A stretch of 64,000 nt of DNA from Candidatus Binatia bacterium (GTDB lineage Bacteria; Desulfobacterota; Binatia; HRBIN30): contig JBBRSP010000007.1 in NCBI GenBank assembly GCA_038245295.1, forward strand, positions 128,001-192,000. Reading direction: 5' to 3'. Numbering within the stretch: the stretch's first letter is position 1; each line of letters begins with the position of its first letter. The translations under genes were made by a program, and so were the position numbers. Shown here one piece after another: positions 1-58,331 of the stretch. The notes below the pieces were generated by a model that worked only from the letters and a program-made list of their open reading frames with translations, was not told the DNA's origin and made no database searches.

Positions 1-448
1 GCTTGATGGAGTCGGGCAACGGCGTGCTGGGTAGAACCCACAACAAGCCCGAGATGATGAAGATCACCTGCCCCGTCGTTTGTGCCAGCTTGGCGACAGT
101 CATCGCGGCGATGATCTTGTTGTCCGGCGCCGCGCCTTGCAGGAAACGCAGGCGCACGAACTCGCCGCCGATCTGTGCCGTCGGAGTCAGGTAGTTGACC
201 GAGTCGCCCGCCATGCGCGCCGCCAGCATACGTCGGAATGGAATCACCGGCCGCGGCGGAGCGAACGATGCCCGCCAACCGAGGGTATTGAACGTGTAGG
301 CGAAGATCTCCTGGCCGATGCTCGGGATGATACCCCAACCGACCAAACGCAAGTCGTCGACGACGTTGCTCGCACCAAGCTTGTAGATGAGAAAAACGAG
401 CAAGCCGGCACCACAAGCGAACAGGGCTCGCTCGAGGAACCGACTCAT
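1..448 (-). CDS. Lysylphosphatidylglycerol-synthase TM / HpnL-like flippase-domain membrane protein (3' end beyond window)
   Basis: Absent from the ORF track. Manual translation from ATG 448 gives MSRFLERALFACGAGLLVFLIYKLG...LGWR...AGDSVNYLTPTAQIGGEFVRLRFL..., the N-x-x-x-P-x3-GGE motif of LPG_synthase_TM/HpnL proteins. ATGA overlap with the upstream gene's stop. Confidence 0.82.
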   Translation of the reverse strand, partial: MSRFLERALFACGAGLLVFLIYKLGASNVVDDLRLVGWGIIPSIGQEIFAYTFNTLGWRASFAPPRPVIPFRRMLAARMAGDSVNYLTPTAQIGGEFVRLRFLQGAAPDNKIIAAMTVAKLAQTTGQVIFIISGLLWVLPSTPLPDSIK

Positions 449-1626
449 TCGGCGTCTCGCCAGAGGTAGACCAGCACCAGGAGCAAGGCGAAGCCGTAGG
501 TGCCGAATGCCGCGCCCCAGAAGAACCAGTGCAATTTCCCGAACAGCGCCAATCCGAGCAGGATGTAGGCGAAGTCGCGATTCATCATCGCTTCCATGCC
601 GCCGAGAATTCTCTGCCGCACTCTGCCCTTGCGAGTCTTGGGCGGCCCGCCACTGCTGGCAAAGTCGGGGCGATGCACCAGGAAGAAGTATGTCGCCACA
701 CTCGTGCAGGCGAATCCACCGAGCAAGATAAGAATCAACGTCTTGTACGGTCCGTTCGGATCCTGCCGGTACAGACCGGCTGCCAGGCCGAGGAAGATCG
801 TCACGTGCACGATGTTGTCGGTGGTCACATCGAACTTCTGCCCGAAGGACGACTCGCGATACGTCAGGCGTGCCACTTCGCCATCGCAGCCGTCGATGAT
901 CGTTGTAGCCAGGAACAACAGAGTACCAACGACACCGGACCAGTAGGCGCCGACACCAAGGAACGCCGAGGCGATCAACCCGAGAGATGTGCCGATGATG
1001 GTGATGTGATTCGGTCGCAGCCGCGTATGACGCACGATACGCCGACTGATCGCCAGCGACACCCGTCGATCAAGCCAATGCGCCAGCGGGCCATCACTGA
1101 CAGCACTGTCGCGGCGCATCTTCTCGCACAAGGCCTGCTCGGCCAGCGCCACCGACGCGGTGTCGGTGACCGGGAGATTCACTTCCGACTCCACGGTCAC
1201 GGGCTCGCTGTCCCTCTGATGCAGACGCGCCCACAACCCGCCTAGCGGCTCCGGCGAGCTGTCGGCGGATGGCGCGACAAGCTCCGGCGCATAAACACCG
1301 ACGCTCTGATTGAACACGGCGGGTTTGCCGTTCAGCGCAAAGGTGCGCGCCTGGCGCAGCGTGCCGGTCGTTACCAACCGATCCGGCGGCACGACCGTCA
1401 CCTGGGCGCCATACAGAGGTGGCAGGCTGCGACAGACCTCAATCGAGTGGGTGCGCTCATCACCGCGAAGCAAGGCCCGTACGTCCTCGAAGTTTTCGCC
1501 GGCGGCGACGACGATGCGATCGTAGTCGGCACGAATTGCCGAGAGAACGGCGCGTTGGACCAAGGTGAGTCCCCCGACTCGCAGGAGACTGGTCGATTGA
1601 TCGGCGAGGACAAGCGCGGTGGTCAT
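445..1626 (-). CDS. CDP-alcohol phosphatidyltransferase with degenerate N-terminal nucleotidyltransferase-like domain (IPCT/DIPPS-like architecture)
   Basis: Signature DGCDGEVAR-x6-GQKFDVTTD, RPNHIT helix and TM segments. N-terminus LLRVGGLTLVQRAV resembles NTP-transferases. Start 1626 chosen from the ATGA overlap. Confidence 0.88.
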   Translation of the reverse strand: MTTALVLADQSTSLLRVGGLTLVQRAVLSAIRADYDRIVVAAGENFEDVRALLRGDERTHSIEVCRSLPPLYGAQVTVVPPDRLVTTGTLRQARTFALNGKPAVFNQSVGVYAPELVAPSADSSPEPLGGLWARLHQRDSEPVTVESEVNLPVTDTASVALAEQALCEKMRRDSAVSDGPLAHWLDRRVSLAISRRIVRHTRLRPNHITIIGTSLGLIASAFLGVGAYWSGVVGTLLFLATTIIDGCDGEVARLTYRESSFGQKFDVTTDNIVHVTIFLGLAAGLYRQDPNGPYKTLILILLGGFACTSVATYFFLVHRPDFASSGGPPKTRKGRVRQRILGGMEAMMNRDFAYILLGLALFGKLHWFFWGAAFGTYGFALLLVLVYLWRDAE

Positions 1627-2651
1627 GCAGCCGCCTCCTCGCGCAGGTCCAACGCCAACGAACCGCGGCGCGCCGACGCGTAGGCTTGCGTCAAGAGGCG
1701 CAGGCACATCTCGGCCTCGGCCAGACTGCGGCCGCGGACAGCGGGCGTTTCGATTTCGATCCGGAAGTCATCGACCACGGCACTGAACCAGTCGGGATGA
1801 TGCGAGCTGGCAGTCAGTCCGCTCGCCAACTGTTGTCGCACGACGCCATCGGGCGACTCGATGGTCAGCCGGTCATCCTCGACTTCGATTTGTCCCCGAG
1901 TCCCGATCACTTGCCAACGCGTGCGGCGCCCCGATGCGGCCCAGGTCAGCATGATCTCGCCGCGTACCGTCGGGAACTCGATCGTGCAGTCCACCGTGTC
2001 CTCGACCGCCGCATCGACGAAGCGACGATTCTCGAGTCGCGCGCCGATGCGTTGCGGCTCTTCGGCCGCCAGCCCCATCATCAGGTAGAACGCATGCCAA
2101 CCGTGATCGACGAGGATGCCGCCACCGGCCACTGCCGCATCGATACGCCAGTTCTCGCCGGTCGAGGCCGAGCAGCCGTCACGCCAGGTGTCGAAGCGCA
2201 CCTTTTCGACCTTGCCGATTCGGCCGGCGTCAATCGCCGACTGAATGCTGCGATAGGCCTCGGAACTCTTCCAGTTATGCACGCTGACTAGGGCCACACG
2301 GGCAGCGGTTGCCGCCTGCCGCATGCTCGCAAAGTCGGTCAGTGATGTTGTCAGCGGCTTCTCGCAAAGAATGTGGCAGCCTTTGGCCGCGGCGGCGATG
2401 ACCGCATCGGTATGCCAGGCCGGAGGTGAGGCAACGTCGACGAAATCAAGGCTCTCTCTCGCCAGCAGCTCTTCATGGCTGCCGTAAAGCGCCACACCGG
2501 GGCACAATTGCTCGGCGAGGGCTCGCCGCCGCGGATCGGGATCGGCGACGGCGACGATTTCGAAATCGGAGCGCAGCCGCCATCCCGGCACGTGGCCGTT
2601 GGCGGCGACGTTGCCGAAGCCGATGATTGCGCCTCGCCGGACGCGTCTCAT
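1623..2651 (-). CDS. Gfo/Idh/MocA family NAD(P)-dependent oxidoreductase
   Basis: GAIIGFGNVA Rossmann motif, HILCEKPL, GGGILVDHGWH; ATGA overlaps at both ends. Confidence 0.9.
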   Translation of the reverse strand: MRRVRRGAIIGFGNVAANGHVPGWRLRSDFEIVAVADPDPRRRALAEQLCPGVALYGSHEELLARESLDFVDVASPPAWHTDAVIAAAAKGCHILCEKPLTTSLTDFASMRQAATAARVALVSVHNWKSSEAYRSIQSAIDAGRIGKVEKVRFDTWRDGCSASTGENWRIDAAVAGGGILVDHGWHAFYLMMGLAAEEPQRIGARLENRRFVDAAVEDTVDCTIEFPTVRGEIMLTWAASGRRTRWQVIGTRGQIEVEDDRLTIESPDGVVRQQLASGLTASSHHPDWFSAVVDDFRIEIETPAVRGRSLAEAEMCLRLLTQAYASARRGSLALDLREEAAA

Positions 2652-4003
2652 TGCCGCCAAGCGTTGTCGCGCGCGATCTCGCCGAACACTTCGTCGAGGA
2701 TGGCCACACCGTCGCGCGCTTCGCTTTCGGTGATGATGAGCGGTGGATTGATACGCATGCGCGAGAAGTAACCCATAACGAGAAGGCCGCGGCGCAGCGA
2801 TTCCAGAAAGATCCGTTCGGTGATCTTGGGATCGAGTGGCTCCTTGGTGGCGCGATTCTTGACGAGATCCAAGCCCAGCAATAGGCCGGCGCCACGCACG
2901 TCACCGATGAACTCGTATTTCTCTTGCAGCTTCTTGAGCTCGCGCAGCATGAACGCTCCGACGCGGGCCGAATTCTCGACCAGATCGTCGTCCAGAATCG
3001 TCTCGATCACCGTCAGCGCCGCCGCCGAGGCGAGCGGGTTGCCACCGTAACTCGAGGAGGATGAGCTCGGCTTGGCGAACGGGAACGAGCTGGTGATTTC
3101 GTCGGTGGAAATCAGGCCGGTGATGGGGAAACCGTTGCCGAAGCCTTTGCCGACAGTCATGACGTCGGGCACCGTCTCGGTATGGTCGCAGCCAAACATC
3201 TTGCCGGTACGTCCGAAGCCGGTGATCATCTCATCGGCGATCAACAGCGCTCCGTGGTCCTTGGCAATCGACTGCACGGCCGGCAGAAATTCCTTCGGCG
3301 GCACGACGTTGCCGGCGGTACCTTGGATCGGCTCGATGATGATGGCGGCAATCATCCCGGCGGTGGTGACTCGCAGCTGTTGGCGCATGAAGTCGACACA
3401 CGCCATGCCGCAGCTCGGATACTCCAGCTTGAACGGGCAGCGATAACAATCGGCATAGGGCACGAGATGGGTGCCCGGCATGAGCGGACCCCACTTCTGC
3501 TTCCACTCGTCGCCGATCAACCCCATCACGCCGCTGGTCTTGCCGTGGAAGCCACCCCAGAAGCCGACCACTTCGAATTTCTTCGTGTACGACTTCGCCA
3601 AGCGGATCGCCGCTTCGACGGCCTCGGCGCCGCCGCTGTAAAGCTGCGTGCGCTTGAGGGCACCCGGGGCAAGCTCGGCCATGTGTTTGAGAAGTTGCAG
3701 ACGCGGCTCGCTGGTAAAGCTGCCAACCGCAAGCTTCTCGACTTGCGAGGTCAAGGCTTTGACGAATCGCGGGTGCGAATGGCCAAGGCTGGCGACGGCG
3801 ACGCCGGCGAAGAAGTCGAGATACTCCTTGCCATCGACGTCGGTGAGACGGCAGCCGTGCCCCTCTTTCATCGCCAACTGCGACAACTGCGCGATGCGTT
3901 GGATGCCTGGCGCGATGTAGGCGCTTTCTTCGGAAACCATGGCCAACGACCTCGCACCTGCCACGGCAGCAGGGCGTGATGCTTCCTTGCTTGTTTCTTT
4001 CAC
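2648..4003 (-). CDS. Class III PLP-dependent aminotransferase
   Basis: YLDFFAG, SGGAEAVE, FHGKT, IIEPIQG, LIADEMITGFGRTG, VGKGFGNG (PLP Lys); GTG start overlapping the upstream TGA. Confidence 0.92.
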   Translation of the reverse strand: MKETSKEASRPAAVAGARSLAMVSEESAYIAPGIQRIAQLSQLAMKEGHGCRLTDVDGKEYLDFFAGVAVASLGHSHPRFVKALTSQVEKLAVGSFTSEPRLQLLKHMAELAPGALKRTQLYSGGAEAVEAAIRLAKSYTKKFEVVGFWGGFHGKTSGVMGLIGDEWKQKWGPLMPGTHLVPYADCYRCPFKLEYPSCGMACVDFMRQQLRVTTAGMIAAIIIEPIQGTAGNVVPPKEFLPAVQSIAKDHGALLIADEMITGFGRTGKMFGCDHTETVPDVMTVGKGFGNGFPITGLISTDEITSSFPFAKPSSSSSSYGGNPLASAAALTVIETILDDDLVENSARVGAFMLRELKKLQEKYEFIGDVRGAGLLLGLDLVKNRATKEPLDPKITERIFLESLRRGLLVMGYFSRMRINPPLIITESEARDGVAILDEVFGEIARDNAWRQ

Positions 4004-4818
4004 GATGGTTCCAGCTCTTGGTGTGCGTCTTTGATGTATTCGGCAATCGCCCGCGCCGCATCGGCGCGGCAGCGCGAGTAACTCGGCCAGTCATTCAGAT
4101 CGATCAGCGTCACTTCCCCGTTTGTCCCTACGACGGCATCGCCGCCGTAGATTTCAACATTCAACCGCATCGCGGCGCGTTGCCCGATAGCATCGATCTG
4201 ACGCAAGGTTTCGGGGCTCAGCGTCATGCCGTCGGACGGCAGGGCGTGAAAGTAGCGGCCGCGCACGGCGTAGAACTTCACCACAACACCGGGCACGTGC
4301 TTCTGAATCACTGCCAACGGCACACCGCGATCGGAGAACCGGCGCAGAGCGGCACGAGCTTCTTCGCTGCTGCTCATTTTGGTCACGTCGTCGGCTTGCG
4401 TCGCATGCACATCGCCGCGTTTGACCCAGGCGCCCTCGCGCACCCACTCGGGAACATCGTGCCCATTCCCGGTGGTGACTATGACGCTCTCGGGGAAGGC
4501 GACCCCGCTTCGTGTCAGCAGCGGCACCGTACGGTGACGCTGGCAATTGAGAATGCCCTCGGGTGAGTTGAGAACGCGCACACCGGCGGCTTGCCATTCC
4601 TGCAGCTGCGCCAGCGATTTGTCTCCCTGGGCCATGGTAAAAACGATGGCCCCGGGCCGCGGCGTCGGGAACCAGGTGCACTCGCCGGCGTGCAATTCCA
4701 CATCGTGCCCGGCATCACGCAGGTGTGCCGCCGTCTCCAACAGGATGAGCGTATCGTCCTCGACCTTGCCCGGCGAGAACACCGGTTCGCGTGTCACTCC
4801 CAAAAATCGCTTCATCAT
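4000..4818 (-). CDS. ATP-grasp fold protein with ITPK1-like motifs (putative cyclitol kinase or ligase)
   Basis: VLNSPEGILNC, WVKRGD, VIQKHVPGVVVKFYAV, IYGGDAV and IDLNDWPSY follow the ATP-grasp layout; the terminal motif is D-x-N rather than E-x-N. Confidence 0.72.
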   Translation of the reverse strand: MMKRFLGVTREPVFSPGKVEDDTLILLETAAHLRDAGHDVELHAGECTWFPTPRPGAIVFTMAQGDKSLAQLQEWQAAGVRVLNSPEGILNCQRHRTVPLLTRSGVAFPESVIVTTGNGHDVPEWVREGAWVKRGDVHATQADDVTKMSSSEEARAALRRFSDRGVPLAVIQKHVPGVVVKFYAVRGRYFHALPSDGMTLSPETLRQIDAIGQRAAMRLNVEIYGGDAVVGTNGEVTLIDLNDWPSYSRCRADAARAIAEYIKDAHQELEPS

Positions 4819-5531
4819 TGATACCCGCCGCGGATGAACGCTTCAGCCGTCGCTATGTCCTCGGGCCGATCCACGTCCACCGTCTTTCCCACAGATGCCG
4901 CCGCGACACGATAGCCGCGTGCCAAGAGATGTGCCAGGAACTGCCGCAATGCCGTAAAGCCAGCGGTGCGCGCTGCTTCCACCTCGTCGTAGATGCGGTT
5001 TGCGTACACATAGAAGCCGGCCGTCACCAAGCCACTGCCGCGGGCGGCGTCGCCCAGGGCCGTGACGCGGCCGTCGTCGCTGCACTGCACCCAGAGAGGT
5101 TTCTCGTCGTCGATATAATCTGTCACTGCCAACACGACATCGGCATCGATGCAGCGCGTCGCCGCATCGATGAACCCACGCAGGACTCGCGGCGGCAGGA
5201 TGGCGTCGACTGTAAGCAGAATGAAGCGATCCGCCTGACCATCGAGGCCGAGCAAGGGTCGCAGGGTAAACAAGCTTTCCATGGAGCTCGGTGTCGTGCG
5301 CCGCACGAAGTTGAAGTCGAGACTCGGCCAGGCCGTCCGGCAATGATCCTCAATGCCACGAGACTGTTCATTGACGATACACGCAACATTCGTCAGGCCA
5401 CTGGCTTCGATCGCCGCCAACACGTGATCGATGAGCGGCCGGCCGGCAACTGGAACCAACGGCTTCGGCTGTAGATATCCGCCGGCCTGCAGGCGCTCGC
5501 CGTGCCCTGCCGCGATGATTCCGACATTCAT
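4815..5531 (-). CDS. Nucleotidyltransferase (NTP_transferase family)
   Basis: MNVGIIAAGHGERL...PKPLVPVAGRPLIDH, and DVDRPEDI at the C-terminus; true start is ATG 5531 inside the longer ORF-track frame. Confidence 0.9.
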   Translation of the reverse strand: MNVGIIAAGHGERLQAGGYLQPKPLVPVAGRPLIDHVLAAIEASGLTNVACIVNEQSRGIEDHCRTAWPSLDFNFVRRTTPSSMESLFTLRPLLGLDGQADRFILLTVDAILPPRVLRGFIDAATRCIDADVVLAVTDYIDDEKPLWVQCSDDGRVTALGDAARGSGLVTAGFYVYANRIYDEVEAARTAGFTALRQFLAHLLARGYRVAAASVGKTVDVDRPEDIATAEAFIRGGYQ

Positions 5532-5592: not shown

Positions 5593-6105
5593 CTACGGGT
5601 TTTCGAGATCGGCGAAGCGTTCCTCGAAGACTTGTCGCAGCTGGGCTGGCACCGCGTACTTGCTGGCGCGCAGGATGAAGTTTCCGTAGGTTTTCGCTCC
5701 GTTGCGAAAGGTCCAATCGGAAATGTCGTCGGCGGCCGTCTGCCATTCCTGCCCGGCGCGCAGGTGGCGCGCCGCCGCCGGCGGCTGACTGATACGACCC
5801 TGCACATGATCTCCGTCAACCTTGACCTGGTCGAGCCACACATGAGCCGTGTCGCTACCGATCGGTACGGGGACCTTCACCGCAAAGCCGTGATCCCCGG
5901 CCTGAGGCGCATTTAGCCGGAGCACGAAACCGGCAAAGTTGAGGCGCGCTAACTGCATGGCCTGCGCAAACATCACCGGGTCCTGAAATGGATCGTAGGT
6001 GTCCTCGCTGCGACCAACCAAGCGACGCAGGCGCCGATAGAACAGTGCTGCCGCCACGACGAGCAACGCGACGAATGCCAGGGCGATCGGTGTCATGAGC
6101 TCCAT
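5593..6105 (-). CDS. DUF2314/YegJ-like membrane-anchored protein
   Basis: N-terminal TM helix; FAVKVP..HVWL..VQGRI..ISDW..YGNFILR pattern typical of DUF2314. Confidence 0.7.
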   Translation of the reverse strand: MELMTPIALAFVALLVVAAALFYRRLRRLVGRSEDTYDPFQDPVMFAQAMQLARLNFAGFVLRLNAPQAGDHGFAVKVPVPIGSDTAHVWLDQVKVDGDHVQGRISQPPAAARHLRAGQEWQTAADDISDWTFRNGAKTYGNFILRASKYAVPAQLRQVFEERFADLENP

Positions 6106-6263
6106 GTTGACCCACCGGCGACGATGGCGACTGCCGCAACAGCCAGCCCGAACGGAACAGTCATCACGCCTCCCTTCGCGTTCTCAGGGAAGCGTTCCTG
6201 CCACAACTCCGGGCCGCCTGCCACTGGAACTGGGGGGAAGTCTCCGATGCCGCGAATCGCCGG

Positions 6264-7961
6264 CTAACGTCGCGCCAGCAGGGCATAACGCAGCCCGAGA
6301 GTCGCCCCGAGGGCGTAAAACCAGAACGATAGGACCGGCAGTCCAAGAATAGTATAGGTTCCATAGTTGAGCGCCAGCGTGCCGCAGATGGCGCATGTCC
6401 CGGCCAGTGCGCCCAGCATCGTGCGATGCTGCGTGCGCTGATAACTCTGGCGCAACAGATCCAACTGGGCACTCTCGACGTTGACCACGGTGCGGCCGGC
6501 GCGCAGGTCTTCGAGAATGCCGCGCGCCGTGTCCGGCATAGTGCCCAACGCATCGGCCAGTTCGCGAACCGCGGCATAACCAGACTCCAACAGCCGTCGC
6601 GGCTGGTAACGTTCCGCCACCAAGCGCAGCATGAAAGGCTGCGCCGCGGCGAGCAGGTCGAGATTGGGACGCAGCTGCTTGCCAACGCCCTCCATTGTGA
6701 TCACCGCCTTGAAGGTCATCGTGTAATCCGGCGGCAAGCGCAGACGATGGCGCAACGACAACGTGATCAGGTCCTTGAGAACAACGCTGAACTCGACCTC
6801 AGCCATCGTCTTGCCGGCAAACCAGCGCTGCGCATGTTCGATGATGTCGCGTTCGAAGACGTCGTAGTCGGCGGTCGACTCCTTGCTGTGAATGGCCATC
6901 ACCCAGAACCGACGCGCCACCGCCTCCCAGTCGTGCCGCACGACGGCAACCAGAAGGTCGGTGAGCAGATCGCGCTGGCGCGGGCTCAAGCGGCCGACGA
7001 GACCGACATCGATGAAACACACCGTGCCGTCGTCGCGGATCAACACGTTTCCAGGATGGACGTCGCCGTGAAAGAACCCGTCGCCGTAGATCATCTGCAA
7101 CACGGCTTCCAAGGCGGTGTGCAGCACAGCATCGACATCGATTCGCGCCTCGTCGATGTTGGTGATCTTGGCACCGACGATGCGCTCCATGGTGAGGACA
7201 CGGGCGCTCGACAGGCCGCGCCGCGGTTCCGGGAAGCGCACACGGGGATTGTCGGCGAAGTTCAGCCGGAAGCGCTCGAGGTTCTCCAACTCGTTGTGAA
7301 AGTCGATCTCCTTGAGGATCGCCTTTTCGAACTCGGCCACCATGCCGGCGGGCGAAAACATGCGCGTCTCAGGGAAATTGGTTTCGAGTACTCGCGCCAC
7401 CAGCGCCATAATCTCAAGATCAGCGGCGATCTGGGGCTCGAGGTTGGGGCGCTGGATCTTCACCACGACATCGGCGCCGTCCTCGTGGAGCCGCGCCGTA
7501 TGTACCTGGGCGATCGACGCCGTCGCCAGGGGTTCACGGTTGAAGTCGCGGAACAGCGTATCGACGTCGGCGCCCAGCTCGCTTTGCACCATGGCGGCGA
7601 CTTCTTCGAAGGGCAGCGACGGCACGTCATTTTGCAATGTCTGAAGCTCTTGAATCAGCGAGGGCGGGAACAGATCAGGCCGGGTCGACACCATCTGTCC
7701 AAGCTTGATGAAGGTAGGGCCGAGGTCTTGCAGGGTGTGGACGATACGGCGTTCGAGAGGAACCGATTCGACCTCGCGGCTGACCCGCCAGTCGCGTAGC
7801 GTCGTGGCAACCCAATTGTCCTGCACCTCGAGGGCCTGCACGACGGCCCCAAAGCCGTGGCGCACCAAGACAGCAACGATCTGCCGCAGACGACCGACAT
7901 CGCGCAGCACGGCTTGGCCGGTGCGCACATTGTCATAGGCGCGGCGCAGAGAAGTCGGCAT
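6264..7961 (-). CDS. ABC1/UbiB/AarF family atypical kinase
   Basis: LGPTFIKLGQ, ASIAQVH, VVKIQRP, FFHGDVHPGN, IDVG; two C-terminal TM helices. Confidence 0.93.
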   Translation of the reverse strand: MPTSLRRAYDNVRTGQAVLRDVGRLRQIVAVLVRHGFGAVVQALEVQDNWVATTLRDWRVSREVESVPLERRIVHTLQDLGPTFIKLGQMVSTRPDLFPPSLIQELQTLQNDVPSLPFEEVAAMVQSELGADVDTLFRDFNREPLATASIAQVHTARLHEDGADVVVKIQRPNLEPQIAADLEIMALVARVLETNFPETRMFSPAGMVAEFEKAILKEIDFHNELENLERFRLNFADNPRVRFPEPRRGLSSARVLTMERIVGAKITNIDEARIDVDAVLHTALEAVLQMIYGDGFFHGDVHPGNVLIRDDGTVCFIDVGLVGRLSPRQRDLLTDLLVAVVRHDWEAVARRFWVMAIHSKESTADYDVFERDIIEHAQRWFAGKTMAEVEFSVVLKDLITLSLRHRLRLPPDYTMTFKAVITMEGVGKQLRPNLDLLAAAQPFMLRLVAERYQPRRLLESGYAAVRELADALGTMPDTARGILEDLRAGRTVVNVESAQLDLLRQSYQRTQHRTMLGALAGTCAICGTLALNYGTYTILGLPVLSFWFYALGATLGLRYALLARR

Positions 7962-8181
7962 GCAGAGGACAAGCTAGCGCACAACGCTGGGCGAAGACAA
8001 AGCCGCACCGCGGGCGCGCGCGTTCCACGCCCGTGATTCATCCTAACCGCAGAGTTTACCGAACCGGCATCGCTCTTAACCGGCCCTCCTCCTAGGATAC
8101 GTTTCCATCGAGGCTGCTCGAAAACGACACCGCCGTACTGCGGCACAACCGACCTTCCGGGTCGTAAGGAGACACAGGACC

Positions 8182-9003
8182 ATGAGCCAACCATACAGGT
8201 ATCACACGCTGATCATCGCCATGGCTTGCCTCAGCGCCGCAAGGTCAGGCAGCGCCGCGATGCTGCGATGTCCATCAGACTCCGTAAGGGTTGGCAACGT
8301 CTGTATCGACAAGTACGAGGCGAGCGTCTGGGACATTCCGCCGTCGAACACCGCGCTCATCCGGCGCGTCCAGCTGGGCAGAGTCACAGTCGCGGAGCTG
8401 ACCAACGGCGGCGCCACGGAGCTGAGCCCCAGCCAGTCGTGCAGCCCGGCATTCCCGGCGACGTTCGGCGCCAACGGGAACTGGACCAAACCCGTCTATG
8501 CGGTGTCCATACCGGGCGTGCGTCCGGCCGGGTGTGTCACGTGGCTCCAGGCAGAACAGGCGTGTGCACTCGCCGGAAAGCGACTGCTGACGAACCAGGA
8601 ATGGCAACGCGCCGCCGCCGGAACGCCGGATCCTGGCGCCGACGACGGTGAAACGGACTGCAACGTCGGTGGTCTCAATCGGCCAGTCGAGGCCGGCTCG
8701 CGATCGAAGTGTGTGTCGAGCTGGGGCACGTTCGACATGGTGGGGAATGTCGAGGAGTGGGTCGCGGACTGGGTGGCGCAGACGACGGCGTGTCCGGGCT
8801 GGGGCTCGTTCAGCGACGACGTCATGTGCCTTTCGGGTGCGAATACGACTGGGACCGGTCCTGGAGCCTTGGTTCGCGGCGGTTCCTACACCGACTTCAC
8901 GGCAGCTGGAGTCTTCGCCATCGACGCCGGCCCGGCACGCGGAACAATCGGCAACACGCCGGTCGCGGCCCGCCCGAGTCTTGGTTTCCGCTGCGCGCGC
9001 TAG
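8182..9003 (+). CDS. Secreted FGE-sulfatase/SUMF1 (C-type lectin fold) domain protein
   Basis: Signal-like N-terminus; CIDKYEAS, GKRLLTNQEW, FDMVGNVEEW, RGGSY, GFRCAR; AAGGAG RBS. Confidence 0.85.
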   Translation: MSQPYRYHTLIIAMACLSAARSGSAAMLRCPSDSVRVGNVCIDKYEASVWDIPPSNTALIRRVQLGRVTVAELTNGGATELSPSQSCSPAFPATFGANGNWTKPVYAVSIPGVRPAGCVTWLQAEQACALAGKRLLTNQEWQRAAAGTPDPGADDGETDCNVGGLNRPVEAGSRSKCVSSWGTFDMVGNVEEWVADWVAQTTACPGWGSFSDDVMCLSGANTTGTGPGALVRGGSYTDFTAAGVFAIDAGPARGTIGNTPVAARPSLGFRCAR

Positions 9004-9087
9004 TCGGTTCTGACGGCAACAACGCTCGCTTGGCTTTGCGCCGACGCTCAGAAGTTGTAGCGTGCCGGCGCAACACCGAGGGAGCGT

Positions 9088-10767
9088 ATGACGATCGTAA
9101 AAGACGACGAACTACCATTGGCACGTGCCTATCGCTGGGAGCGTGAGCGACCGAACCAAGTATTCTTGACGCAGCCGAAGAACGGCGTCGCCCGGGATTG
9201 GACCTGGGCGCAGGCGATGGACGAGGCGCGACGGCAGGCGGCTTACCTCAAGGCGCAGAATTTCCCGCCGGGGTCGCGCATCGTCATCATCGCCAAGAAC
9301 TGCGCCTGGTGGATCATGGCCGACCTCGCCATCTGGATGGCGGGGCACGTCAGCGTCCCCGTCTATCCGTCGCTGGCAGGCAGCACGGTGCGACAGATCC
9401 TCGACCATGCCGAGGCAAGCCTGGCGTATATCGGTGAGCTCGACGACTGGAAGAGTATGCAGTCCGGCATTCCCGCCGAGCTGCCGTGTATCGGCATGCC
9501 GAACGCGCCGGAAGCGATCAAAACCCGTTGGGACGACATCCTGGCGAAAACGCCGCCCATGAGTGGCGAGACGCGGCGCAATGCCGACGATCTCGCGACC
9601 ATCATCTACACCTCGGGAACAACGGGAATACCGAAGGGCGTCATGCACGCCTTCACCAGCTTCGCCATCGCCGGGCAATTGTTTGCCAACCTCATCAAGG
9701 CAACCCCCGATGAGCGCATTCTTTCCTACTTGCCATTGGCGCACGTTGCGGAGCGCGCGCTGATCGAATCGCCGTCCATTTACGCCGGCACCCATATCTA
9801 CTTCACGGAAGGGTTGAGTACGTTCCTCGTCGATCTGCGGCGGGCACGGCCAACCGCATTCTTTTCGGTGCCGCGACTGTGGGTCAAGTTCCAGCACGGC
9901 GTATTCGAAAAGCAGCCGCCAAAGAGGCTGAACTTCTTGATGCGCCTGCCGATTGTGGGTCGCTTGGTCAAGAAGAAGATCCTGACCCAACTCGGCCTCG
10001 AGACCGTGCGGTTCGCCGGCTGTGGCGCGGCACCGATGCCGCCGGAGTTGCTCCAATGGTATCGCCGCCTCGGCCTCGAGCTGCTCGAAGGCTACGGGAT
10101 GAGCGAGAACTTCGGCTTGTCCCACAGCTCGCGGCCAGGCCAGGCGCGTGTGGGATACGTTGGGCAACCATGGGACGGCATGCAGCATAAGTTGTCTCCC
10201 GAGGGGGAAGTCCTGGTCCGCTGCCCGACCAACATGATGGGATACTTCAAGGAGCCGGAGAAAACGCGCGAGGTGTTTACCGACGACGGGTTTCTGCGCA
10301 CCGGTGATCTCGGACAGATCGACGAAGCCGGACGGCTACGCATCGTCGGGCGTGCCAAGGAGCAGTTCAAGACGAGCAAGGGCAAGTATGTCGCGCCGTC
10401 GCCTATCGAGAACAAATTATCGGCGCACCCGCGTGTCGAGGCCGTCTGCGTCACGGGTCCGGGCTACCCGCAGCCGTTCGCCATCGTCGTCTTATCGAAG
10501 AGCGAACCTGGCGACGGTTTGCCGCCGGCAGCCGAACGAGAAGAGCTCAGCCGGTCGTTGACTGCCCATCTCAAGTCGGTGAACGCCGACCTCGATCCGC
10601 ACGAAGAGCTCGATTTCATCGCTGTCGTCGGCCAGCACTGGAGCGTCGAATCCGGATTCATCACACCGACGCTGAAGATCAAACGCCCTGTGGTCGAAGG
10701 TTTCTACGAGCGCCATTTCGAAGAGTGGGCACGCCAACGTAAGCCGGTGGTGTGGCACGAGGGCTAG
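9088..10767 (+). CDS. Long-chain fatty-acid--CoA ligase (AMP-binding)
   Basis: YTSGTTGIPKG, EGYGMSE, RTGDLG, GRAKEQFKTSKGKYVAP, TPTLKIKR. Confidence 0.92.
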   Translation: MTIVKDDELPLARAYRWERERPNQVFLTQPKNGVARDWTWAQAMDEARRQAAYLKAQNFPPGSRIVIIAKNCAWWIMADLAIWMAGHVSVPVYPSLAGSTVRQILDHAEASLAYIGELDDWKSMQSGIPAELPCIGMPNAPEAIKTRWDDILAKTPPMSGETRRNADDLATIIYTSGTTGIPKGVMHAFTSFAIAGQLFANLIKATPDERILSYLPLAHVAERALIESPSIYAGTHIYFTEGLSTFLVDLRRARPTAFFSVPRLWVKFQHGVFEKQPPKRLNFLMRLPIVGRLVKKKILTQLGLETVRFAGCGAAPMPPELLQWYRRLGLELLEGYGMSENFGLSHSSRPGQARVGYVGQPWDGMQHKLSPEGEVLVRCPTNMMGYFKEPEKTREVFTDDGFLRTGDLGQIDEAGRLRIVGRAKEQFKTSKGKYVAPSPIENKLSAHPRVEAVCVTGPGYPQPFAIVVLSKSEPGDGLPPAAEREELSRSLTAHLKSVNADLDPHEELDFIAVVGQHWSVESGFITPTLKIKRPVVEGFYERHFEEWARQRKPVVWHEG

Positions 10768-10777
10768 CGGGCGCGGG

Positions 10778-11452
10778 TTATGGACGACCTAGATCATCCA
10801 GGCGTCGCAGGACCAGGTCGACCAGCGACGGATCTGGACACGACAGATCGCGCTCGCCGGTGAACCAGGCCGTCTTCAGCCCGGCCCCACGCGCGCCGCG
10901 TACATCCTTGTCGAAGGAATCTCCCACGTAGAGCACTTCGTGGGCGGCACAGCCCATTTGTTCGACGGCCATCTGGAAGATCGCCGGATCCGGCTTGCTG
11001 ACACCGACACAGTTGGAATCGATGATGCTGCTCAACATCGGACTGAGCCCGGCTTCGTCGAGCAATCGGTCGACGTTGCCGTAGAAGTTCGAAATGACTC
11101 CCAGTGTGTAGCGTTGGCGCAAGCGTTTCAGGACCTGACGGCTGGCTGCCAAAGAGGCCCGCGCTTGATTGACGAAGTCGGTGATTACGCGCAGGCGCAC
11201 CTGCTCGTCGTCCAGCTTCAACCGTTCGAGCTGGCGATCGACATGGAACTCGATCAACGGCTGCAGCTCGAGGTCGGCGACGGCCATATCGCGGTAGGCC
11301 GATTGCGTCGCGAAGTCGAAAGCATCGCGGATCGTCGCCCAGGAGTAGTCGCAGCCGGCGGCACGGTAGAGCTCGGCGAAACGTTCGAGCCAGTGAATGC
11401 CGGGAGCGTCGAGAGTACCGCCGAAATCGAAACAGATGCCGCGCACTTCCAT
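10778..11452 (-). CDS. HAD family phosphatase
   Basis: FDFGGTLD (motif I variant), ISNFYG, KPDPAIF, VGDSFDKD. Confidence 0.88.
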   Translation of the reverse strand: MEVRGICFDFGGTLDAPGIHWLERFAELYRAAGCDYSWATIRDAFDFATQSAYRDMAVADLELQPLIEFHVDRQLERLKLDDEQVRLRVITDFVNQARASLAASRQVLKRLRQRYTLGVISNFYGNVDRLLDEAGLSPMLSSIIDSNCVGVSKPDPAIFQMAVEQMGCAAHEVLYVGDSFDKDVRGARGAGLKTAWFTGERDLSCPDPSLVDLVLRRLDDLGRP

Positions 11453-11550: not shown

Positions 11551-13245
11551 ATGGCCAGATTGAATGAGTTCTCGGCGGCGACGCGACAGCGCAACCTGGA
11601 AGCTCTGTCGCGCGACACGTTTGATCTTCTGATCATCGGCGGCGGAATCACGGGTGCGGGCATCGCGCGCGACGCGACACTACGCGGCCTCAGGGTTGCG
11701 CTGGTCGAACAACGCGATTTTGCTTCCGGCACCAGCAGTCGTTCCTCGAAGCTAGTGCACGGCGGATTGCGCTATCTGGCGCAGGGCGACGTCGGCCTGG
11801 TGATGGAAGCCGCGAACGAACGTCGGACGCTGCGCCGCATCGCGCCCTATCTGGCGCGACCCCTGCAAATGCTCGTGCCGGTGCACGGCCGCTCGGGCTA
11901 CATGACGATCAGTGCCGGGTTATTCACCTACGACAAAATGGCGCGCGTCGAAAAGGAGCATCGCAACCAGATGCTCGGACGCGACGATACTCTTGCCAAA
12001 GAGCCACTGCTGCGCCGCGACAAAGTGTACGGCGCCGGGTTCTACTACGAGTGCCTGACGGACGACGCACGTCTGGTCATCGAGAACATCAAGACCGCCG
12101 CCGCTCTCGGTGGCATCGCCGCCAACTACACCGAGGTTGTCTCCTTCCGCACCGAAGGTGGACGCTTGAGCGGCGCGGTGGTTCGCGACCGCCTCGGTGG
12201 TGGCGAATTCGAAGTGCGCGCCCATGTGACGGTCAATGCTGCCGGCCCGTGGGTCGACGCCGTGCGTCTACTGCAGGGCGAGAGCGAAAAGCCGCGGCTG
12301 CATCTGACCAAGGGAATTCATCTGGTCGTCCCGAAGGAGCGGCTGCCGGTGCAGCACTGCGTCGTAATGACGACACCCGACAAACGGTCGATCTTCGTCG
12401 TGCCGCGCGGCGACATCGTCTACCTCGGCACCACCGACACCAATTACGAGGGCCGACTCGACGAGCCGGCAATCACCGTCGAGGACGGCGAGTACCTGCT
12501 GCAGACCACCAACGCGACATTCGACATCGAGCCGTTACGCCTCAGCGATACCGTCGGCGCCTGGGCTGGGCTGCGCCCCCTGTTGCATCAGGAAGGAAAG
12601 AAGCCTTCCGAAATCTCGCGACGCGACGAGATCATGGTGGGGCCAAGCGGGCTGCTGTCGATCGCCGGCGGCAAACTCACGGCCTATCGCCGTATGGCTG
12701 AACGAATCGTCGAGAACGTCGCAGAGATTCTCACCGAACGCGGCCACTCGGTACGACCGGACCCGGGGAACAGCGCGACCGAACTGTTGAGTGGTGGTGC
12801 GACGGGTGAAGACGTTGAGGCGTTCGCTGCACGACTGAAGAGTAAGTGGTCGCGCCTGCCTGCCGACATCGTCGAACGCCTGGTCACGGTCTACGGCAGC
12901 AATGCCGAACGGATGGTCGAGGGCATGGCCACCGACCCGCAATTGGCACTTCGGTGCGCCCCGGAGTCGGCCGTCACGCAGAGCGAGGTCGCCTACGCCG
13001 TGCGCGAAGAGATGGTCATGACCCTTGTCGACTTCCTCGAACGCCGCTCGCGTCTCTTCTTGTGGGATCGCGCCAACGGGCTGGGCGTGGCGAGCCAGGT
13101 GGCACACCTCATGGCACCGATGCTGGGTTGGGATACGACGCGGGTAGACCGCCAAATACGCGAGTATGGTGAGCATGTTGCTGCGGTGAAACACTTCGTG
13201 TCGCCAGAATCAGACATCGTCGAGAAAAAGGTGGCACATGCCTGA
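11551..13245 (+). CDS. glpD: FAD-dependent glycerol-3-phosphate dehydrogenase/oxidase
   Basis: IIGGGITGAG, DFASGTSSRSSKLVHGGLRYL, DDARL, GTTDT, WAGLRPL, GGKLTAYRRMAE. Confidence 0.92.
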   Translation: MARLNEFSAATRQRNLEALSRDTFDLLIIGGGITGAGIARDATLRGLRVALVEQRDFASGTSSRSSKLVHGGLRYLAQGDVGLVMEAANERRTLRRIAPYLARPLQMLVPVHGRSGYMTISAGLFTYDKMARVEKEHRNQMLGRDDTLAKEPLLRRDKVYGAGFYYECLTDDARLVIENIKTAAALGGIAANYTEVVSFRTEGGRLSGAVVRDRLGGGEFEVRAHVTVNAAGPWVDAVRLLQGESEKPRLHLTKGIHLVVPKERLPVQHCVVMTTPDKRSIFVVPRGDIVYLGTTDTNYEGRLDEPAITVEDGEYLLQTTNATFDIEPLRLSDTVGAWAGLRPLLHQEGKKPSEISRRDEIMVGPSGLLSIAGGKLTAYRRMAERIVENVAEILTERGHSVRPDPGNSATELLSGGATGEDVEAFAARLKSKWSRLPADIVERLVTVYGSNAERMVEGMATDPQLALRCAPESAVTQSEVAYAVREEMVMTLVDFLERRSRLFLWDRANGLGVASQVAHLMAPMLGWDTTRVDRQIREYGEHVAAVKHFVSPESDIVEKKVAHA

Positions 13246-14650: not shown

Positions 14651-14665
14651 CCGGAACGGACAGCC

Positions 14666-55989: not shown

Positions 55990-56811
55990 TCACGCCTCGC
56001 GGCGGTTGGCGAGCAACGCCGCACCGGTTAGCGCCAGAAGCATGGAGACCGGCCGCACAAAGCCGAAGCGGCCGCTGCCAATGAGCGGCTCCCCGAAGAC
56101 CATGGCGCCGCCGGCGATCGGAACAATGTTGGAAATCACCGAGAAGATTGGCACAACCACCACTCCGCGACCGCCCTGCAACGTCGCTTGCATGGCAGCA
56201 AACCCGGCCGCATTGGTCAGCAGCGTCGTCCACAGGGGCCCGGCCAGAGCCTCCGCAAATGAGTCGACCGCCGATAGCTGCTTGGCGAACAAACCGGCGA
56301 GGCCCAGCAACACACCCGCCGCAACGGCCCAGCCGATCTCGCGGCGCGGGCGGCGGTCACCCCAGACCGCGAATACCGAGATTCCGATCGATAACACGGA
56401 GAAGAAGGTGATCGACAGTCCGGCGGCCGGAGCGGACGCGTGTTCCTCGAGGGTTGATCCAAGCAGCACTAGACCAATGGTTACGGCGACAACGCCAACC
56501 CATTCGACCCCACGCAACCGCTCGCCCAGCCCGATTACGGCCATCAGCACAAAGACGGCGATGCCACCATCCATCGCCGTGTGGACGATGGAGAGCGGCG
56601 CCCAACGCAGCGCGAGGATGTAAACACCATAGGCGAATGTCTGCAGCGCAACACCGAAGACCCACCAGCGATTACGCGCAAACGCGGCCCAGGCTTTGGC
56701 GCTCAGCCCGCCTCGGATCGGCGGCAAGCCCTCCGCCTCGCGCTTCATGTAGTACAAGCCCACCGACATCGTGGTGCTCGCGAAGATCGAGAGAAGAACC
56801 GAAAGAAGCAT
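55990..56811 (-). CDS. DMT/EamA superfamily transporter
   Basis: About 9-10 TM helices; ALRWAPLSIV, LGERL...EW.G, VFGE motifs. Confidence 0.8.
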   Translation of the reverse strand: MLLSVLLSIFASTTMSVGLYYMKREAEGLPPIRGGLSAKAWAAFARNRWWVFGVALQTFAYGVYILALRWAPLSIVHTAMDGGIAVFVLMAVIGLGERLRGVEWVGVVAVTIGLVLLGSTLEEHASAPAAGLSITFFSVLSIGISVFAVWGDRRPRREIGWAVAAGVLLGLAGLFAKQLSAVDSFAEALAGPLWTTLLTNAAGFAAMQATLQGGRGVVVVPIFSVISNIVPIAGGAMVFGEPLIGSGRFGFVRPVSMLLALTGAALLANRREA

Positions 56812-56822
56812 CGTAGAAATGC

Positions 56823-56848
56823 GAAACGCCCTGTTGCCAGGGCGTTTC
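56823..56848 (-). terminator. Hairpin downstream of hpnJ
   Basis: Minus strand GAAACGCCCTG-GCAA-CAGGGCGTTTC followed by GCATTTCT. Confidence 0.55.
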
Positions 56849-56882
56849 ACGTATCAGGGTGGGTTACCGGTATAAGTCGCGC

Positions 56883-58331
56883 CTACACGGCTCCCGGCGT
56901 CGCCGGGGTGCGCGATGAGTTGCGCCGCTTGCGCATCGTCGTCAGAAACTCGCCGGCTTCGCGCATCAAGCGCTTGCGCTCGTCGGAGCTGCCGATCATC
57001 TTCTTGGCCGCCTTTATGAAGTACTTCGGACGGAAGTAGTACGAGCGGTAGACACGTTCGACCGCGTCGAAAATTTCCTGCGATGACAGGCCGGGGTAGC
57101 TGACGGTGCACTTTTGGTAGCCGGCTTCGTCATTGTAGACGTCCTGCACCAGGAAGCCGTTCTCTTTGACGTAGTTGTAGAAATGCGTGCCCGGGTATGG
57201 CGAAGCCAGCGAAACCTGCAGAGTTTCCGGGTTCATTTCACGCGCGAACTTGATCGTCTCGTTGATGGTTTCCATCGTCTCGCCCGGCAGACCGACGATG
57301 AACGTGCCATGGATCAGGATGCCGATCTCGTGGCAGTCCTTGGTGAAGCGGCGGGCGCGTTCGACACTCACACCCTTCTTGATGTTCTTGAGGATCTCTT
57401 CGTTACCCGACTCGTAACCGACGACGAAAAGGCGCAAGCCGCCGTCCTTCATCGATTTCAACGTCTCACGATCGACGTTGGCTCGGGCGTTGGTCGACCA
57501 ACAGAGGTTCTGCGTCTTGAACAAGTCGGCTAGCTGGCGGGCTCGCAGGGGGTCGGCCGTGAACGTGTCGTCGTCGAAGAAGATCTCTTTCATCTTCGGG
57601 AAACGCCGCGGCATCTCCTTCACTTCCTCGAAAACATTCTCAGGGCTCCGCGTGCGATACGAATGCCCCGTGGTCACCTGTGGCCACAGGCAGAACGTGC
57701 AACGCGCCGGACAACCGCGGCCGGTGTAAAGTGAAACGTACGGATATTGGCAGTAGGGACTGTTGTACTTGAGATAGTCGAGATCGCGTTCGTAGATCTG
57801 CGTCACGAACGGCAGCGCATCGAGTTGCTCACGCGTCATCGGTGCCGAATCTGGATTGTGCGTGATGACGCCGTTCTTGCGGTAGCTTAGACCTGGGATC
57901 GAGGCCCAGTCCTTGCCGGCAGCAAGGTCGACCAGCGCGTGATCGAACTCTTTGCGGGCGATGACATCGATCGCGTCGCCGAAGTCGAGCGATTCCTGCG
58001 GCTGCGCCGTGACGTGGCCGCCGACAAACGCAATCGTCGCCTTGGGATTCAGATCCTTGATCATCCGCGCCGTGCGCACATCGAGTTTGAACGATGGCGT
58101 GCTGGTGTGCAGGACCACGAAATCATACTTCGAAGCCGTAGAGACCACCTCGGCCTGCTTCAGGTGCTCCGGCGGCGCGTCGAGCAAACGCGCCCCTTCG
58201 ATCATTCCAGCCGGATAAGCGAGCCAGGTGGGATACCAGAACGACCAGACTTCACGCGTCGCCTGGTAGCGGGAACCCGCTCCACCATCAAAATCGTCGT
58301 AGGAGGGCGGATTAAGAAGGATAGTCTTCAT
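56883..58331 (-). CDS. hpnJ: Hopanoid biosynthesis-associated radical SAM protein HpnJ
   Basis: NPPSYDDFDGGAGSRYQATRE..SFWYPTWLA N-terminus; GRGCPARCTFCLWPQ; FFDDDTFT. Confidence 0.93.
   Translation of the reverse strand: MKTILLNPPSYDDFDGGAGSRYQATREVWSFWYPTWLAYPAGMIEGARLLDAPPEHLKQAEVVSTASKYDFVVLHTSTPSFKLDVRTARMIKDLNPKATIAFVGGHVTAQPQESLDFGDAIDVIARKEFDHALVDLAAGKDWASIPGLSYRKNGVITHNPDSAPMTREQLDALPFVTQIYERDLDYLKYNSPYCQYPYVSLYTGRGCPARCTFCLWPQVTTGHSYRTRSPENVFEEVKEMPRRFPKMKEIFFDDDTFTADPLRARQLADLFKTQNLCWSTNARANVDRETLKSMKDGGLRLFVVGYESGNEEILKNIKKGVSVERARRFTKDCHEIGILIHGTFIVGLPGETMETINETIKFAREMNPETLQVSLASPYPGTHFYNYVKENGFLVQDVYNDEAGYQKCTVSYPGLSSQEIFDAVERVYRSYYFRPKYFIKAAKKMIGSSDERKRLMREAGEFLTTMRKRRNSSRTPATPGAV

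Follow-up and report, generated by a model that had tools for sequence, protein, structure and literature searches.

In the streptomycin (streptidine) route inositol is converted to scyllo-inosamine phosphate. The conversion of a secondary alcohol to an amine by a dehydrogenase-transaminase pair is established (PMC4340712). Inositol lipids are made by Bacteroides (Phocaeicola) vulgatus and P. veroralis, for which a gene cluster of the kind considered here has been proposed as the sole candidate route (Heaver et al. 2022, PMC9246714), and a cytidine diphosphate (CDP)-inositol route of Rhodothermus is cited in PMC9246714 and PMC10191378. In hopanoid tailoring the known hpnIJK(L) steps do not involve CDP chemistry and comprise transfer of N-acetylglucosamine, deacetylation and ring contraction (PMC12583986), and HpnL has no known function (bioRxiv 10.1101/2025.07.29.667474; PMC12583986). 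Here we compare with these systems a locus from a 64,000-nucleotide stretch of a Candidatus Binatia bacterium (GenBank assembly GCA_038245295.1, contig JBBRSP010000007.1, C7:128001-192000). This whole stretch is called the window, and coordinates are window positions unless prefixed C7. Six minus-strand genes of the window and a displaced HAD hydrolase gene are read as one module that would take inositol to inosamine, inosamine phosphate and CDP-inosamine and then to a zwitterionic lipid head group, a reading to which we give a probability of about one half. A preliminary description of the stretch had proposed a cationic headgroup; an inosamine phosphodiester would be zwitterionic, not net cationic. 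The genes of the module are as follows.

4815..5531, minus strand: NTP-transferase, predicted cytidylyltransferase, 238 aa (PF12804)
4000..4818, minus strand: ATP-grasp protein, predicted ITPK-like cyclitol kinase, 272 aa (structure model, motifs, Q64)
2648..4003, minus strand: class-III pyridoxal-phosphate-dependent aminotransferase, predicted inosose aminotransferase, 451 aa (PF00202)
1623..2651, minus strand: Gfo/Idh/MocA dehydrogenase (Gfo), predicted inositol dehydrogenase, 342 aa (PF01408/PF22725)
445..1626, minus strand: CDP-alcohol phosphotransferase (CDP-AP) of AF2299/DIPPS architecture, 393 aa (motif, PDB matches)
1..448, minus strand: 5' part, running on beyond the left edge, of an LPG-synthase-TM/HpnL-like membrane protein, 333 aa (whole gene C7:127447-128448; PF03706, TIGR00374 above cut-off)
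10778..11452, minus strand: HAD hydrolase, displaced first gene of the operon (335 bits to the HAD profile of relatives)

The first six genes had all been named in the preliminary description and are real, both as open reading frames and by family (NTP_transf_3, Aminotran_3, GFO_IDH_MocA, CDP-OH_P_transf and LPG_synthase_TM in Pfam). The ATP-grasp protein had no Pfam match and only a weak match to the RimK family; its fold was confirmed by structure comparison using a model with a mean predicted local distance difference test score (pLDDT) of 95.5. The five 4-bp stop-start overlaps reported between the genes were also found, and read in order ATGA, GTGA, ATGA, ATGA and ATGA. Scans for promoters and terminators gave no usable signal.

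The ATP-grasp gene was present in 43 of the 61 related genomes searched, this genome counted, and up to 20 kb around it was compared in 40 of the 42 other carriers, two short contigs being excluded. The six-gene order was unbroken in 30 of these 40 loci and the ATP-grasp and aminotransferase genes were neighbours in every one, hence the gene order is not due to chance. Lack of conserved co-occurrence, which had been named as grounds for giving up the proposal, was therefore not found, and the co-occurrence extends to many phyla. A member missing from the preliminary description is the HAD gene. It lay directly 5' of the NTP-transferase gene in 38/40 related loci, and the order HAD-NTP-ATPgrasp-AT-Gfo-CDPAP-HpnL-HpnK (AT, aminotransferase) was unbroken in 28 of them, one with CDP-AP and HpnL fused; many of the loci without the full order stop at contig edges. 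In this genome the HAD gene is 5.2 kb upstream of the NTP-transferase gene, and while it matches the profile of its relatives strongly, other HADs in the genome score below 100 bits. The four genes in between were matched in 0/40 related loci. Given the order conserved in relatives and the splitting off of the HAD gene by four unshared genes, seven genes and hpnK make up the natural unit, which is interrupted at two places in this genome.

The second interruption lies to the left of the window, where the operon had been said to continue. Only the remainder of the sixth gene is found there, the HpnL-like gene stopping 553 bases left of the edge, and hpnK beyond an insertion. The inserted genes run on the opposite strand and encode a toxin-antitoxin pair (HI0074/MntA), and hpnK (TIGR03473 above cut-off) begins 1.1 kb past the end of the HpnL-like gene. 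The downstream genes had been proposed as the place to look for ino1/MIPS or pepM, and neither follows.

The core of the module extends well beyond Binatia. A profile of the ATP-grasp protein drew matches in 1,595 clusters (50% identity) and on genome contigs estimated to number 2,800. The 80 best of these contigs were analysed, along with 80 metagenome loci. The counts for this wider set (distribution, add-on genes, tree, shc, ino1 and residue 64) include one unpublished genome, G071/L099. A single-protein query of the genome contigs found no relatives and it was the alignment-based search which found them. Among the best 80 genome loci an NTP-transferase was present in 72, a CDP-AP in 73, a HAD in 71, ino1 in 44 (by our own ino1 profile) and an HpnL-like gene in 39. 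Most Bacteroidota loci carry the core without aminotransferase or Gfo. The aminotransferase was found in 29/80 genome loci and 25/80 metagenome loci, and Gfo accompanied it in 46 of these 54, the remaining eight being short contigs. Gfo without an intact aminotransferase occurred in a single one of the 160 loci, L123, where the aminotransferase is frameshifted (L123 is wrongly labelled as lacking it in the quick tree that was used). Aminotransferase-bearing loci fall under ten phylum labels: Ignavibacteriota, Bacteroidota, Acidobacteriota, Elusimicrobiota, Verrucomicrobiota, Gemmatimonadota, Methylomirabilota, Thermodesulfobacteriota and Pseudomonadota, plus Binatia. The core consists of NTP-transferase, ATP-grasp, CDP-AP, flippase-like protein and HAD, often with ino1, to which dehydrogenase and aminotransferase are added as a pair. 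The ATP-grasp gene belongs to the core, because it is kept in loci without aminotransferase and because seven of 12 proteins scanned for fusions join it to other core members (NTP-ATPgrasp in five, HAD-NTP-ATPgrasp in one, ATPgrasp-CDPAP in one).

This core is shared with the proposed alternative inositol-lipid cluster of B. vulgatus and Prevotella, for which the loci of B. finegoldii, P. distasonis and a Phocaeicola sp. stood in for B. vulgatus's own proteins. NTP-transferase, CDP-AP, HAD, the LPG-synthase-like gene and ino1 (unlinked here) are common to both. The annotated order in B. finegoldii is ino1, NDP-sugar synthase, hypothetical protein, CDP-AP, LPG-synthase-TM, HAD. In both B. finegoldii and P. 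distasonis the NTP-transferase and CDP-AP genes enclose an unannotated gene that is homologous to the ATP-grasp gene (34-36% identity). The ATP-grasp gene goes unmentioned in PMC9246714, whose supplements name neither BVU_RS13100 nor an ATP-grasp. Unlike the Bacteroides cluster, the locus here has an added Gfo and class-III aminotransferase, a CDP-AP of AF2299 type, an unlinked ino1 and an attached hpnK, and ceramide genes were not found in the genome. The core has the make-up of the cluster proposed in PMC9246714, to which the amination pair is added. The kinship with this inositol-lipid cluster of Bacteroidetes had been suggested earlier, together with an inositol-type substrate, amination by the dehydrogenase-aminotransferase pair, and CDP activation and transfer; genomic context backs all four.

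The ATP-grasp protein is predicted to be an ITPK-like cyclitol kinase. In a profile search with its C-terminal (catalytic) half, ITPK4 was matched with an E-value of 4e-5, ITPK1 with 1.5e-3 and RimK with 0.034. The model superimposes on the ITPK1 structure 2qb5 with Z 18.7 and a root-mean-square deviation of 3.1 Å over 250 aligned residues. Among 127 sequences, K133, K181, D227, D240 and N242 each recur in 126-127 (K181 127/127, D240 126/127, N242 127/127). The KFY and D-x-N-x-x-P-S-F/Y motifs align with ITPK4 and ITPK1 (in the shared form, D-x-N-x-x-P-x-Y/F); RimK and PsnB carry R and E at the corresponding positions. K181 and D-x-N are taken as putative kinase markers on the strength of these few alignments. 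PF05770 was matched weakly by 13/52 family members, with a best E-value of 4e-4. Unlike ITPK1 and ITPK4, the protein is bacterial, is encoded beside a predicted cytidylyltransferase and has a fold closer to RimK/LysX, and its identity to the two is only 13-18%. A search of the ESM Atlas gave unnamed clusters, plus one with 14% RimK. The open-access literature, to which the search was confined, yielded no report of a bacterial ITPK-like kinase and none of an amino-inositol lipid.

One residue of the ATP-grasp protein follows the presence of the aminotransferase. Where the aminotransferase is present residue 64 is Q in 53 and E in 4, together 57/58 loci, and it is Q in 40/40 Binatia sequences. 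Where it is absent and the CDP-AP gene follows directly, residue 64 is R in 67/69 loci; a further 33 loci of undecided aminotransferase state were excluded from the count. The residue switches inside the Ignavibacteria clade, the Ignavibacteria/Bacteroidota having Q64 in nine aminotransferase-bearing loci and R64 in four related loci without aminotransferase. Because Arg64 is lost where the substrate would gain an amine, this suggests that the ATP-grasp protein acts after amination, on the aminated ring. The difference between R64 and Q/E64 offers a one-residue test, and a cultured carrier is Desulfoferrobacter suflitae (L110), which also has ino1, shc and hpnJ. When comparable marker positions were sought in NTP-transferase and HAD, the variation tracked phylogeny and not the aminotransferase.

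The amination pair itself resembles the GenD2-GenS2 chemistry of aminoglycosides, where a dehydrogenase and a transaminase turn a ring hydroxyl into an amine (PMC4340712). Unlike the aminoglycoside routes, the locus has an ATP-grasp kinase candidate and its output would pass via CDP to a membrane enzyme and not to an antibiotic. Aminotransferases of the streptidine type are DegT-type, whereas the enzyme here is class III. It belongs to PF00202 but falls below all NCBIfam equivalog cut-offs among the matches listed; no HpnO model was among the 25 best of these, and no HpnO sequence was compared. Its identity across relatives is 57-78%, other class-III paralogues in this genome reach at most 34%, and a homologue search returned generic names only. 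All 28 Gfo sequences compared keep the EKP motif, D182 and H186, and the best NCBIfam match of Gfo is IolG, with 76.6 bits against a cut-off of 355.

The chief argument for inositol as the substrate is that ino1 lies inside the cluster. It is in the locus for 11/29 aminotransferase-bearing genome loci (10 by our own profile, and L147 by PF01658) and for 8/25 such metagenome loci, and it is co-oriented with aminotransferase-bearing clusters in Ignavibacteria, Bacteroidota, Acidobacteriota and one delta-proteobacterial locus. At genome level ino1 was found in 42/43 related carriers and 36/38 distant genomes. An apparent abundance of carriers without ino1, obtained with PF07994, was largely an artefact, as this family misses a short type of ino1 and PF01658 recovered most of them. 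Tannerella forsythia (L167) and a Parabacteroides (L158) have the core cluster and no ino1 by the two families; such carriers would need inositol uptake, which the kinase would allow.

The CDP-AP has an intact D-x2-DG-x2-AR-x8-G-x3-D-x3-D motif, and its best PDB matches, both by sequence and by fold, are AF2299 and IPCT/DIPPS. With these proteins of A. fulgidus (PDB 4MND, 4O6M) it shares the motif, the two-domain architecture and, as predicted, a CDP-polyol donor from a nucleotidyltransferase. It differs from them in that the N-terminal cytidylyltransferase-like domain is degenerate, without the G-x-G-x-R motif, beside a separate NTP-transferase, and in that amination, kinase-like, HAD and flippase-like genes are added. 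A full-length PDB profile search with the NTP-transferase ranked sugar-phosphate nucleotidyltransferases level with the inositol-1-phosphate cytidylyltransferases 2xme and 4mnd, and NF041135 was far below cut-off. The CDP-APs of Bacteroidota and Ignavibacteria score approximately 45-70 bits to the Binatia profile and are without the N-terminal domain.

As to the acceptor, MlaE/F/D genes lie inside Ignavibacteria clusters, and SPT- and CerS-like genes adjoin Verrucomicrobia clusters. A ceramide acceptor is not supported in this genome, where the sole SPT-like match, next to bioA/bioD-like genes, was bioF and a single CerS-like query gave no match. In place of ceramide, the acceptor here is probably diacylglycerol, an ether glycerol or a hopanoid polyol.

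From the genes, their coupling and conservation, and from the fusions, folds, motifs and co-occurrence given above, we infer every reaction, and the order of the reactions, in the following scheme. The product of ino1, which is elsewhere in the genome, would be inositol 3-phosphate, from which HAD would remove the phosphate; alternatively HAD may act last. Gfo would then oxidise a hydroxyl of inositol to give an inosose, and the class-III aminotransferase would convert this to an inosamine. The ATP-grasp protein, as an ITPK-like kinase, would phosphorylate the aminated ring, the NTP-transferase would turn inosamine phosphate into CDP-inosamine, and the AF2299-type CDP-AP would place phospho-inosamine onto a lipid alcohol. 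The HpnL-like protein may flip the product or hand it on. If this is correct, a zwitterionic amino-inositol phospholipid is produced by bacteria belonging to many phyla of soil and sediment, and the head of this lipid could hide in lipidomics as hexosamine-phosphate since it has the same formula. The comparison also directs attention to an ATP-grasp enzyme that had been overlooked in the proposed route of gut Bacteroidales to inositol lipids and that may correspond, in bacteria, to the eukaryotic ITPK kinases.

Several observations weigh against this reading, and they are taken together here with the explanations that they would favour. AF2299 and DIPPS act on non-lipid substrates and six-helix CDP-APs take soluble acceptors (Clarke et al., PMC4634129), and the model of the CDP-AP has approximately six membrane helices. 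The likeness to AF2299/DIPPS therefore favours a solute or a polyol-headed acceptor (PMC4634129), and the same head-group chemistry could decorate a surface glycan or yield a soluble phosphodiester, either di-myo-inositol phosphate or glycerophospho-inositol in amino form. We regard this as unlikely given that the Bacteroides form is lipid-linked (PMC9246714), albeit with a different CDP-AP subfamily. The flippase-like gene in the operon and the MlaEFD and sphingolipid genes in or beside homologous clusters also speak against a soluble product. It is distinctly unlikely that the pair aminates a sugar or other polyol in place of inositol, in a kanosamine-like manner following the NtdABC logic of Gfo, aminotransferase and HAD. 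The top PDB matches of Gfo are sugar and aminoglycoside dehydrogenases, and although inositol enzymes fit the sequence profiles of both Gfo and NTP-transferase, neither profile selects them. Furthermore, ino1 is unlinked here, on the separate contig C5, and was not found in three genomes, G004, G071 and G088, the first of which is 100% complete and keeps six of the genes. The presence of ino1 is also non-discriminating at genome level since it occurs in 14/18 related non-carriers. It is the co-orientation of ino1 with aminotransferase-bearing clusters in several phyla that argues against a sugar.

The kinase assignment is opposed by the whole fold of the ATP-grasp protein, for which RimK and LysX are nearest (Z 21-22, with ArgX also among the best) and ITPK1 follows. 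A RimK/LysX-type amide ligase, acylating the new amine to give an N-aminoacyl-inosamine head, would fit both these matches and the 40/40 adjacency to the aminotransferase gene. It is improbable, however, as 69 loci keep a member of the family although no aminotransferase is in view, so that an amine to acylate would be lacking, and as the catalytic motifs are ITPK-like. The split at residue 64 must also be read with care. It has exceptions (L154, with Q and no aminotransferase, and L100, with Q and none in the locus), it represents about two or three independent changes on the quick tree, and the loop bearing the residue is presumed to lie at the substrate site. The best PDB matches of the class-III protein include amino-acid racemases, Ile 2-epimerase and ethanolamine-phosphate phospho-lyase. 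An epimerase or lyase, by which the add-on would alter inositol stereochemistry or remove a group and add no amine, is nevertheless very improbable in view of the strict pairing with the dehydrogenase and of the change from Arg to Gln/Glu in the ATP-grasp protein, which fits a substrate gaining positive charge. Finally, NTP-transferase, CDP-AP and HpnL-like genes are known from phosphonolipid clusters, and the distant locus L104 has a gene of the PEP-mutase family 2 kb away. The L104 gene scores highest as a methylisocitrate lyase, though below every cut-off, the best TIGR02320 match in this genome reaches 87.5 bits against a cut-off of 319.55 and is on another contig, and no pepM cluster is among the conserved neighbours. 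An ordinary phosphonolipid cluster, the case which the preliminary description had set against its own proposal, is thus largely refuted, with no pepM above cut-off in this genome (ppd was not searched for).

Within the reading as an inosamine lipid, the acceptor might be a hopanoid. This genome has shc, hpnH, hpnI, hpnJ and hpnK. As in hpnIJK(L) tailoring, hpnK is co-oriented at the operon end, hpnJ is nearby and an HpnL-like gene lies inside the operon, though the TIGR03476 HpnL score of the flippase-like protein, 173.7 bits, is below the cut-off of 195.65. Among 38 distant genomes, 12 of which were excluded as having both, neither or intermediate types of CDP-AP, shc was found in 10/10 with the AF2299 type (at least 199 bits) and 0/16 with the Bacteroides type alone. 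In Syntrophobacteraceae hpnJ is directly 5' of HAD; dxs stands ahead of Acidobacterial loci and, together with an hpnD-like gene, flanks a Myxococcota locus. Because of the split in shc by CDP-AP type, and because hpnJ, hpnK, an hpnD-like gene or dxs are direct neighbours in several phyla, it is conceivable, although doubtful, that a head-group module (HAD, ITPK-like kinase and cytidylyltransferase, with or without the amination pair) is coupled to interchangeable CDP-APs, of which the AF2299 type transfers phospho-inosamine to a hopanoid, at its polyol side chain. The consequences would be a phosphodiester-linked amino-inositol hopanoid, a function for HpnL and a bacterial ITPK-like kinase. 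An aminopentanetetrol head was another candidate that was considered.

Against a hopanoid acceptor, the split between CDP-AP types follows phylogeny, and shc is present in 31/43 related carriers and also in 6/18 non-carriers, these being draft genomes. Neither shc nor hpnH was found in eight related carriers, and four genomes that are 95-99% complete have the full operon with neither gene found. Unlike hopanoid tailoring, the module also occurs in lineages where no shc was found, and hpnK survives loss of the module. This last point weakened a part for hpnK in the chemistry, hpnK staying next to glpD in four genomes of one genus (g18; L253, L256, L258 and L259) where the seven-gene module is missing and hpnK is divergent from glpD. 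The near-complete genomes G027 and G028 have hpnK above cut-off and no shc or hpnH was found in them, hence in Binatia the substrate of HpnK may be a lipid other than a hopanoid. Elsewhere, L262 (G058) has a Gfo orthologue (296 bits) apart from the module, heading an hpnH-shc-hpnK cluster. At L264 (G000:C23:33000-53000) shc and hpnH lie beside genes that look by eye like those of the mevalonate pathway (HMG-CoA reductase, IPP isomerase, kinases).

The remaining features of the window that bear on the operon are the following.

5593..10767, no single strand assigned: four intervening genes (DUF2314, ABC1 kinase-like, FGE-like, AMP-binding), outside the conserved set (family matches)
55990..58331, minus strand: hpnJ (C7:184922-186331; TIGR03471 above cut-off) and an 'EamA-like' membrane gene

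The label 'EamA-like' is our own, as no family matched. In relatives hpnJ (14 loci) and this membrane gene (13 loci) converge on hpnK at the operon end, and here they sit together approximately 57 kb away. Just left of the window, at L001:12767-13478 and 12482-12651, the HEPN/MNT (HI0074/MntA) pair inserted between the HpnL-like gene and hpnK is accompanied by two repeats of 42 nt, which lie 97 nt from each other and have inverted arms.

On the plus strand at 11551-16126 there is a triad of glpD, an FAD-linked oxidase and a glpK-like gene, which is divergent from HAD in 16/40 relatives. The oxidase is putatively alkyl-DHAP-synthase-like, and a part for the triad in ether-lipid metabolism or supply is possible, although the triad remains where the module is lost. 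Variants of the locus were also seen. In L050 (G004) HAD, NTP-transferase, ATP-grasp, aminotransferase, Gfo and the HpnL-like gene are kept with no CDP-AP in the locus; a more distant CDP-AP is on another contig of G004, and hpnK and shc, like ino1, were not found in it. In L252 and L254 (family f3) hpnK is adjoined by two weak NTP-transferase-like genes and an AF2299-type CDP-AP, without ATP-grasp, aminotransferase or Gfo, and L254 also has the HpnL-like gene.

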